A stretch of DNA of 16,089 nt from a virus (IMGVR_UViG_2529293138_000003); one strand, 5' to 3'. Shown: positions 13,399 through 15,740, numbered from the stretch's first letter. Numbers and translations: made by a program. Notes: a model not told the origin generated them from the sequence alone.

Positions 13399-13724
13399 AA
13401 ACCTTCCGCTGGAAAGTGAAACCCGGTATGGATGTGGCTTCGGCCCCTTCCGTAGGAAAGGTGCGCTTTGGTGATGGCTATTCCCAGCGAGCGCCTGCCG
13501 GGCTGAATGCCGACCTGAAAACGTACAGCGTGACGCTTTCTGTTCCCCGTTGGGAGGCCACGGCGCTTGAGTCGTTTCTGGCTGAGCACGGGGGCTGGAA
13601 ATCCTTTCTGTGGACGCCGCCTTATGGCTACCGGCAGATAAAGGTGACCTGCGCAAAATGGTCGTCGCGGGTCAGTATGTTGCGTGTTGAGTTCAGCGCA
13701 GAGTTTGAACAGGTGGTGAACTGA
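13395..13724 (+). CDS. M: Tail tip assembly protein gpM (109 aa)
   Basis: ORF 13395..13724; ATGA overlap with H; matches lambda gpM. Confidence 0.95.
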   Translation: MKTFRWKVKPGMDVASAPSVGKVRFGDGYSQRAPAGLNADLKTYSVTLSVPRWEATALESFLAEHGGWKSFLWTPPYGYRQIKVTCAKWSSRVSMLRVEFSAEFEQVVN

Positions 13725-14422
13725 TGCAGGATATCCGACAGGAAACACTGAATGAATGCACCCGTGCGGGGCAGTCGGCCAGCGTGGTGCTCTGGGAAAT
13801 CGATCTGACAGAGGTTGGTGGAGAACGTTATTTTTTCTGTAATGAGCAGAACGAAAAAGGTGAGCCGGTCACCTGGCAGGGGCGACAGTATCAGGCGTAT
13901 CCCATTCAGGGGAGTGGTTTCGAACTGAATGGCAAAGGCACCAGTACGCGCCCCACGCTGACGGTTTCTAACCTGTACGGTATGGTCACCGGGATGGCGG
14001 AAGATCTGCAGAGTCTGGTCGGCGGAACGGTGGTCCGGCGTAAGGTTTACGCCCGTTTTCTGGATGCGGTGAACTTCGTCAACGGAAACAGTGACGCCGA
14101 TCCGGAGCAGGAGGTGATCAGCCGCTGGCGCATTGAGCAGTGCAGCGAACTGAGCGCGGTGAGTGCCTCTTTTGTACTGTCCACGCCGACGGAAACGGAC
14201 GGCGCTGTTTTTCCGGGACGTATCATGCTGGCCAACACCTGCACCTGGACCTATCGCGGCGATGAGTGCGGTTATCACGGTCCGGCGGTCGCGGATGAAT
14301 ATGACCAGCCAACGTCCGATATCACGAAGGATAAATGCAGCAAATGCCTGAGCGGTTGTAAGTTCCGCAATAACGTCGGCAACTTTGGCGGCTTCCTTTC
14401 CATTAACAAACTTTCGCAGTAA
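13724..14422 (+). CDS. L: Tail tip protein gpL (232 aa), C-terminal cysteine cluster
   Basis: ORF 13724..14422; TGATG overlap with M; cysteines in ...CTWTYRGDECGYHG...DKCSKCLSGCKF... consistent with the known Fe-S cluster of gpL. Confidence 0.95.
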   Translation: MQDIRQETLNECTRAGQSASVVLWEIDLTEVGGERYFFCNEQNEKGEPVTWQGRQYQAYPIQGSGFELNGKGTSTRPTLTVSNLYGMVTGMAEDLQSLVGGTVVRRKVYARFLDAVNFVNGNSDADPEQEVISRWRIEQCSELSAVSASFVLSTPTETDGAVFPGRIMLANTCTWTYRGDECGYHGPAVADEYDQPTSDITKDKCSKCLSGCKFRNNVGNFGGFLSINKLSQ

Positions 14423-14427
14423 ATCCC

Positions 14428-15171
14428 ATGGCACAGACAGAATCAGCAATTCTGGCGCACGCCCGGCGATGTGCGCCAGCGGAGTCGTGCGGCTTCGTGG
14501 TAAGCACGCCGGAGGGGGAAAGATATTTCCCCTGCGTGAATATCTCCGGTGAGCCGGAGGCGTATTTCCGTATGTCGCCGGAAGACTGGCTGCAGGCAGA
14601 AATGCAGGGTGAGATTGTGGCGCTGGTCCACAGCCACCCCGGTGGTCTGCCCTGGCTGAGTGAGGCCGACCGGCGGCTGCAGGTGCAGAGTGATTTGCCG
14701 TGGTGGCTGGTCTGCCGGGGGACGATTCATAAGTTCCGCTGTGTGCCGCATCTCACCGGGCGGCGCTTTGAGCACGGGGGGACGGACTGTTACACGCTGT
14801 TCCGGGATGCTTATCATCTGGCGGGGATTGAGATGCCGGATTTTCATCGCGAGGATGACTGGTGGCGTCACGGTCAGAATCTCTATCTGGATAATCTGGA
14901 GGCCACAGGGCTGTATCAGGTGCCGTTGTCATCAGCACAACCGGGCGATGTGCTGCTGTGCTGTTTTGGTTCATCGGTGCCGAATCATGCCGCCATTTAC
15001 TGTGGTGATGGCGAGCTGCTGCACCATATTCCTGAACAACTGAGCAAACGAGAGAGGTATACCGACAAATGGCAGCGACGCACACACTCCCTCTGGCGTC
15101 ACCGGGCATGGCGCGCATCTGCCTTTACGGGGATTTGCAACGATTTGGCCGCCGCATCGACCTTCGTGTGA
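14428..15171 (+). CDS. K: Tail tip assembly protein gpK, long form of 247 aa with an MPN/JAB (JAMM) metalloprotease-like domain plus an NlpC/P60-like cysteine peptidase domain; alternative internal start at 14572 gives the 199-aa form annotated in lambda
   Basis: Continuous ORF from the ATG at 14428 (5 nt after the L stop). JAMM signature H-S-H-P-x6-S-x2-D (HSHPGGLPWLSEAD) with an upstream Glu in RCAPAESCGF; the C-terminal half carries Cys/His typical of NlpC/P60. The ATG at 14572 has a good Shine-Dalgarno (ggagg) but would cut off the N-terminal part of the JAB domain. Confidence 0.8.
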   Translation: MAQTESAILAHARRCAPAESCGFVVSTPEGERYFPCVNISGEPEAYFRMSPEDWLQAEMQGEIVALVHSHPGGLPWLSEADRRLQVQSDLPWWLVCRGTIHKFRCVPHLTGRRFEHGGTDCYTLFRDAYHLAGIEMPDFHREDDWWRHGQNLYLDNLEATGLYQVPLSSAQPGDVLLCCFGSSVPNHAAIYCGDGELLHHIPEQLSKRERYTDKWQRRTHSLWRHRAWRASAFTGICNDLAAASTFV

Positions 15172-15740
15172 AAACGGGGGCTGAAGCCATCCGCGCACTG
15201 GCCACACAGCTCCCGGTGTTTCGTCAGAAACTGAGCGACGGCTGGTATCAGGTACGGATTGCCGGGCGGGACGTCAGCACGTCCGGGTTAACGGCGCAGT
15301 TACATGAGACTCTGCCTGATGGCGCTGTGATTCATATTGTTCCCAGAGTCGCCGGGGCCAAGTCAGGTGGCGTATTCCAGATTGTCCTGGGGGCTGCCGC
15401 CATTGCCGGATCATTCTTTACCGCCGGAGCCACCCTTGCAGCATGGGGGGCAGCCATTGGGGCCGGTGGTATGACCGGCATCCTGTTTTCTCTCGGTGCC
15501 AGTATGGTGCTCGGTGGTGTGGCGCAGATGCTGGCACCGAAAGCCAGAACTCCCCGTACACAGACAACGGATAACGGCAAACAGAATACCTATTTCTCCT
15601 CCCTGGATAACATGGTTGCCCAGGGCAATGTTCTGCCGGTTCTGTACGGTGAAATGCGCGTGGGGTCACGCGTGGTTTCTCAGGAGATCAGCACGGCAGA
15701 CGAAGGGGATGGTGGTCAGGTTGTGGTGATTGGTCGCTGA
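15069..15740 (+). CDS. I: Tail tip assembly protein gpI (223 aa), overlaps the K 3' end by 103 nt in a different frame
   Basis: ORF 15069..15740; ubiquitin-like N-terminal region and Gly/Ala-rich hydrophobic middle, as in lambda gpI. Confidence 0.93.
   Translation: MAATHTLPLASPGMARICLYGDLQRFGRRIDLRVKTGAEAIRALATQLPVFRQKLSDGWYQVRIAGRDVSTSGLTAQLHETLPDGAVIHIVPRVAGAKSGGVFQIVLGAAAIAGSFFTAGATLAAWGAAIGAGGMTGILFSLGASMVLGGVAQMLAPKARTPRTQTTDNGKQNTYFSSLDNMVAQGNVLPVLYGEMRVGSRVVSQEISTADEGDGGQVVVIGR

Follow-up and report, generated by a model that had tools for sequence, protein, structure and literature searches.

Gene K of lambda-type phages very probably encodes a functional gpK of 247 amino acids, which starts at the ATG at position 14428 of the sequence studied here and combines a JAB domain with an NlpC/P60 domain. 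The 199-amino acid form given in the λ reference would be an annotation artefact due to one missing G, and λ would encode the same long protein. The window, by which we mean the whole stretch of 16,089 nucleotides that was analyzed (IMGVR_UViG_2529293138_000003), is the left arm, carrying head and tail genes, of a lambda-type phage or prophage and shows 97.5% identity to phage 2H10 and 96.7% identity to λ. All features described below lie on the plus strand and their coordinates are those of the window unless λ is specified. The long form of K is already known and the present finding is an annotation correction, not a discovery; its value lies in curation, the open reading frame (ORF) itself being an ordinary and already annotated member of a well-described family.

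Gene L (13724..14422), which matches λ L at 13429..14127, encodes the tail tip hub protein of 232 amino acids according to the list of ORFs and to Pfam (Phage_tail_L, E = 7e-101). Its TAA stop codon at 14420-14422 is followed 5 nt downstream by the ATG at 14428, the first one of the K ORF, and the ORF list confirmed the claim of an earlier reading made from the sequence only that the frame stays open from there through 15171. Full-length gene K (14428..15171) thus encodes a JAB/JAMM and NlpC/P60 protein of 247 amino acids and 28.15 kDa. Genes M and L abut, their stop and start codons overlapping, and K in turn overlaps gene I (15069..15740; 223 amino acids; Pfam Lambda_tail_I at residues 14-97), which shares 103 nt (15069-15171) with the 3' end of K. 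The codons absent from the 199-amino acid annotation are codons 1-48 (14428..14571), encoding a helix (residues 2-15), two strands (21-27 and 30-36) and the motif P17-x-E19-x-C21-G22. The short form starts at the ATG at 14572, which corresponds to the annotated λ K start and closes the segment 14423-14574 singled out by the earlier reading; its N-terminus would be MSPEDWLQ and it is devoid of Glu19, whereas N-terminal peptides of the long form would be those from MTQTESAILAHAR to EPEAYFR. The probability of finding such a 48-codon extension open by chance is about 0.10 on its own; the case for the long form is decided by homology.

The domain content of the two forms was compared with Pfam, using cut-offs of 25 bits for JAB and 23 bits for NlpC/P60. 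The 247-amino acid protein matches Prok-JAB (PF14464) with 52.8 bits over residues 2-104, corresponding to profile positions 2-112 of 114. The 199-amino acid form scores 23.3 bits, below the cut-off, and covers the last 50 profile positions only; it retains the NlpC/P60 match. This second domain (C40; 14758..15099, residues 111-224) aligns with all 105 positions of the PF00877 profile (1-105 of 105) at 50.7 bits. The earlier reading had expected the two matches at about residues 10-110 and 120-240. Within the JAB domain, Glu19 (GAG, 14482-14484) belongs to the CAPAESCGF stretch and is followed by the metal-binding signature H68-S69-H70-x7-S78-x2-D81 (14629..14670; codons checked). All elements of the JAMM/MPN+ catalytic motif E-x(n)-H-S/T-H-x7-S-x2-D are present as E19, H68, S69, H70, S78 and D81, and together with the complete Pfam match they bear out the proposal that the long form holds a complete JAB/MPN motif. 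The catalytic residues of the NlpC/P60 domain are Cys121 (14788-14790), His187 (14986-14988) and His199 (15022-15024). Both domains would be catalytically active.

An AlphaFold model of K built on 94 homologues reached a pLDDT of 96.9. In this model, residues 1-48 correspond to the helix and the two strands mentioned above, which are predicted to form three core elements of the MPN fold. The short form, whose start at 14572 lies downstream of Glu19, indeed lacks both this residue and the N-terminal β-strands, as had been stated. Foldseek aligned the model with the Pyrococcus desampylase JAMM1 (5ld9/5lda) at a TM-score of 0.66-0.69 on the target and an rmsd of 2.5 Å, and the PDB profile and Foldseek matches to JAMM1 5ld9/5lda, 2kks and 2kcq begin at profile positions 3-14. 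The C-terminal domain was matched to MepS/Spr by both Foldseek and the PDB profile search, and by Foldseek also to LytE and to Clostridium difficile (Acd) autolysins.

The extent of the protein is shared by distant relatives. Among 98 cluster representatives of comparable length and less than 65% identity (34-61%), the alignment begins at residue 19 or before and reaches at least residue 215 in 95 cases; in the remaining three it begins at residues 2-17, so that all 98 cover the N-terminus of K. In the 94-sequence alignment, H68, H70 and D81 are invariant (94/94), E19 is found in 93 sequences, and S69 and S78 in 89 each; in the N-terminal motif, G22 is again present in all 94, C21 in 90 and P17 in 85. 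The NlpC/P60 residues C121, H187 and H199 are each conserved in 93 of the 94. This family-wide conservation of both active sites supports the suggestion that functional gpK unites a JAB and an NlpC/P60 domain. Relative to the window protein, mean identity amounts to 33% for residues 1-48, 37% for residues 49-104 and 42% for residues 105-226. Among close relatives, codons 1-48 display a dN/dS of 0.26 and their variable sites are distributed over the three codon positions as 11/7/23, with third-position variation in excess; the segment is under purifying selection. The order L-K-I was also encountered in diverse viral contigs, where K measures 237-251 amino acids and starts in most cases a few nucleotides from the L stop codon. 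A locus search with a 38% identical homologue as query returned no match. Two further possible starts, GTG at 14497 (224 amino acids) and GTG at 14536 (211 amino acids), were rejected as both are located downstream of the near-invariant Glu19.

The ATG at 14428 is not preceded by a Shine-Dalgarno (SD) sequence, its anti-SD duplex being evaluated at +0.7 kcal/mol, and initiation at this position would for that reason rely on translational coupling to L. Further downstream, an internal GGAGG (14556-14560) separated by an 11-nt spacer from the ATG of Met49 (14572-14574; the whole element spanning 14556..14574) yields an anti-SD duplex of -9.5 kcal/mol, similar in strength to those of genes H, M and I, and is labelled ribosome binding site in record OM418626. 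A strong internal site and none at the long start would suit the view that lambda-clade phages make two nested K products at a set ratio, 247 amino acids from 14428 and 199 amino acids, essentially NlpC/P60 alone, from 14572. Nested in-frame pairs are familiar in λ, with C/Nu3 and S107/S105. The GGAGG and the ATG are kept in the four close E. coli and Shigella relatives examined, and Iyer et al. noted phages whose TAPK consists of the NlpC/P60 domain only (PMC1779556). However, the two signals are not conserved together: Escherichia albertii retains GGAGG with ATC at codon 49, Citrobacter retains the ATG without SD, and a 48% identical Shigella homologue retains GGAGG with ACG at codon 49. The persistence of GGAGG in the absence of the ATG probably reflects conserved coding of E-P-E rather than a conserved ribosome binding site. 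Moreover, Met49 occurs in only 12 of the 94 homologues, the consensus being Ile; codon 49 specifies Ile in the diverse viral contigs, 15 of 16 of which lack an SD before it. The spacer of 11 nt exceeds the optimum, and the 199-amino acid product would hold a broken half of a JAB domain. Two nested products at a set ratio are an unlikely account of gene K. Some initiation at Met49 may still occur and give rise to a minor 199-amino acid product in lambda-clade phages, which is not a conserved feature among the homologues compared.

The short annotation of λ K, for its part, can be traced to one nucleotide. Pairwise alignment placed the anticipated single-base difference at a G in window position 14562, absent from J02459/NC_001416 between λ C14266 and T14267 and thus 10 nt before the annotated K start. 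The sequence-only reading had given the λ coordinates correctly (L 13429..14127, K 14276..14875, I 14773..15444) and had deduced that the distance between the L stop and the I start is 1 nt longer than in the reference; we measured 647 nt in the window and 646 nt in NC_001416. It had further proposed that the corresponding upstream segment of the reference is out of frame with K, hence the short annotation. This segment turned out to be a separate 76-amino acid ORF (λ 14133..14363), whose first 45 residues are common with long K and which then runs out of frame. With the reference frame broken in this manner, the next ATG provided with a Shine-Dalgarno was chosen and K was annotated short. As to whether λ shares the reading-frame continuity of the window, the expected break does exist in the reference record, but as a biological difference it does not stand: real λ DNA carries the G and is therefore continuous like the window.

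The G is present in the resequenced λ imm434, in the λ records PV340536 and KT232076 and in DE3. Additional copies of λ DNA came from scanning the bacterial species with one genome each, which uncovered at least 16 assemblies containing λ contigs. These assemblies belong to Neobacillus, Shewanella, Pseudomonas, Chromatium, Bradyrhizobium, Kitasatospora and others, and the contigs, most of them covered about 1x, measure between a few hundred bases and about 48.5 kb. In such unrelated bacteria, they evidently result from laboratory contamination and can serve as independent resequencings of λ. Throughout the four resequenced λ or DE3 records and 16 contaminant contigs, the G is the only difference from NC_001416 13300-15600, or from the part of this region that is covered. 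Conversely, 3957 complete E. coli genome records contained 7328 homologous sites, and not one of these was identical to the G-less reference stretch.

It could be argued that the λ cI857 S7 stock sequenced in 1982 had truly lost the G by mutation and made its tails with a split or truncated K, the JAB domain being dispensable in the laboratory. For laboratory λ, a real frameshift is indeed known in the tail gene stf (PMC10721106), and the G is lacking not only in J02459 and NC_001416 but in two further GenBank records, OR974322 and OR474059, making 4 of 122 phage records. One of these two is an UNVERIFIED, unannotated engineered strain and the other an isolate with reference coordinates. All four G-less records also carry an extra G near position 138 that is peculiar to the reference; since OR974322 and OR474059 share it, along with the reference coordinates, both look reference-derived. 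With respect to resequenced λ imm434, this extra G displaces all downstream coordinates of NC_001416 by one, as far as 14266, where the other G brings them back into register. A private mutation is further contradicted by the presence of the G in every independent resequencing, including the many contaminant laboratory λ contigs, and the GGAGGCG context is GC-rich, where gel-reading errors would be expected. For cI857 ind1 Sam7 DNA, which is the sequenced genotype, a commercial supplier is reported to list a 1-bp deletion at 138 and a 1-bp insertion at 14266, which would likewise speak against a mutation. Feiss et al. (2022) counted nine differences from the 1982 sequence common to laboratory λ strains, with the sites unlisted (PMC9119081); the resequenced λ hybrids differ from it, among other sites, in the G at 14266/14267 and in the one near 138, and the paper is silent on the effect on gene K. 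A true mutation of the sequenced stock is very improbable, and from the records compared the missing G appears to be a defect of J02459 rather than a biological variant. A programmed +1 frameshift in λ K was also considered and dropped, as it is unnecessary when real λ DNA carries the G.

That only the 199-amino acid K is real, the upstream 144 nt being an untranslated spacer or a decayed JAB remnant, agrees with the historical annotation retained in the DE3, HK630 and λ imm434 records and with the strong internal SD, but is barely credible in view of the low dN/dS and third-position variation of codons 1-48, the near-invariant P-x-E-x-C-G, the inclusion of this segment in every distant homologue, the fall of JAB below the Pfam cut-off with loss of the catalytic Glu and three core fold elements, and a resulting 148-nt non-coding gap that would be unusual for an operon in which L and K nearly abut in most relatives.

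The 247-amino acid protein is already well represented in databases. The exact window protein is RefSeq WP_064717010.1, a 'C40 family peptidase' of 247 amino acids, and at least 1000 contigs carry the λ 247-amino acid K, one of its names being 'metal-dependent protease of the PAD1/JAB1 superfamily'. Annotations of long K include those of the 2025 λ record PV340536 (34915..35658), of phage 21 and of PGAP (WP_000194779.1). The truncated version persists in J02459, NC_001416, UniProt TIPK_LAMBD, DE3, HK630 and λ imm434. In the entries for close relatives, the length given to this ORF is 199, 211, 224 or 247 amino acids, and the authors of the Feiss et al. study assigned 247 amino acids to phage 21 while keeping 199 for λ imm434.

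In the literature, the listing of the λ K JAMM motif dates from 2004 (PMC300881) and the description of its combination of JAB and NlpC/P60 domains from 2006 (PMC1779556). An HHpred survey of 2020, which relied on truncated K, saw no more than 'a peptidase domain, residues 52-182 of 199' (PMC7291167). Our full-text literature search found no published link between the missing G at 14266 and the truncation of K; the matches to '14266' were unrelated papers only, and the site is unmentioned in the MutaMouse λ-gt10, ISS nanopore and CRISPRi essentiality papers. The canonical entry for λ K lists a protein without 48 residues, among them the catalytic Glu and three core JAB elements, and clone sets and structure predictions made from the reference annotation would inherit this truncation. 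The 247-amino acid protein is also the precondition for testing a prediction made in 2006 on the processing of gpI.

In their analysis, Iyer, Burroughs and Aravind described gpI (TAPI) as possessing a ubiquitin-like N-domain whose C-terminal glycine is conserved and predicted that the JAB domain of TAPK releases this N-domain (PMC1779556). The gpI of the window has the corresponding layout, with a ubiquitin-like N-domain, a Gly-rich hinge (G96..G100-G101) and a hydrophobic C-terminal part. G96 is found in 22 and G101 in 21 of 23 gpI homologues, and P92, G96 and G101 are kept between the ubiquitin-like domain and the hydrophobic segment, residues 96-101 being encoded at 15354-15371. The start of gene I also deserves a comment: the Lambda_tail_I match begins at gpI Met14 (ATG 15108), where the SD duplex is -1.5 kcal/mol against -9.3 kcal/mol at the ATG at 15069, and one record starts the gene at a TTG further in. 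Natural K-I fusions exist and are highly similar to one another.

The properties of λ gpK and gpI reported in the literature bear on this prediction. gpK is needed for tail assembly (PMC10721106, PMC12617516) and absent from virions (PMC10721106). By cryo-EM, gpI was resolved from residue 101 onward (PMC11101478) and in other maps only from residue 134/135, and virion mass spectrometry recovered one gpI peptide, whose position is not given (PMC10721106). The missing gpI N-domain is compatible with its removal by a peptidase but is not proof, as flexibility explains it equally well.

The preferred reading of gene K as a 247-amino acid protein can be extended into a working scheme. Gene K would be translated from the ATG at 14428, coupled to translation of L, into a 28 kDa non-virion tail-tip assembly protein endowed with two putative peptidase domains, an N-terminal JAMM/JAB zinc-isopeptidase domain (E19, H68, H70, S78, D81) and a C-terminal NlpC/P60 cysteine-peptidase domain (C121, H187, H199). 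During tail-tip assembly, the JAB domain would cut the ubiquitin-like N-domain off gpI at the conserved C-terminal glycine, and gpI or a different tail protein might then be the target of the NlpC/P60 domain. That full-length gpK is an active double peptidase whose JAMM domain removes the gpI N-domain at G96 to G101, leaving only the C-terminal part in the virion, is a tentative proposal which we hold to be doubtful at present. If true, it would constitute a ubiquitin-style maturation step encoded by a virus, which may have escaped study in part because work on λ used truncated K. One of the K domains might also make the cut that converts gpH to gpH*, K being a candidate for this reaction solely by virtue of being a peptidase.

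The closest known counterpart is λ long K itself (TAPK, UniProt TIPK_LAMBD), from which window K departs at 6 of its 247 residues (identity about 98%), both belonging to the same 90% identity cluster. λ shares the L-K-I-J gene order and a K that joins JAB to NlpC/P60, and its gpK is absent from virions; we see no biological difference between the two, the reference record alone listing 199 amino acids on account of the missing G. With the JAMM/MPN+ isopeptidases, such as the prokaryotic and archaeal JAMM1 (5ld9/5lda) and AfJAMM (1r5x) or the eukaryotic Rpn11, CSN5 and AMSH, K shares the E-x(n)-H-S-H-x7-S-x2-D motif and, as modelled, the MPN fold. Such enzymes cleave ubiquitin-like proteins behind their C-terminal Gly-Gly, and the gene following K encodes a ubiquitin-like domain with conserved glycines. 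Unlike them, K is fused to a second, papain-like peptidase and works in virion assembly instead of protein turnover. With MepS/Spr of E. coli and LytE/CwlO of Bacillus subtilis, it shares the Cys-His-His catalytic set and the fold; in contrast to them, no signal peptide or cell-wall-binding module was noted in K on inspection. gpK being cytoplasmic and not incorporated into the virion, a peptidoglycan substrate seems unlikely and a protein or isopeptide substrate more plausible.

Not all copies of K are intact. Some chromosomal homologues in Shigella and E. coli are truncated or frame-broken, one of them being reduced to 113 amino acids, and these probably belong to decaying prophages. At the other end of the protein, residues 227-247 are barely conserved (6.7% identity, 59% gaps) and are encoded in the overlap with gene I. 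Across this overlap (15069-15171, K residues 214-247), synonymous divergence is low and the K-frame dN/dS is 0.67, as would be anticipated with the constraint acting on the I frame.
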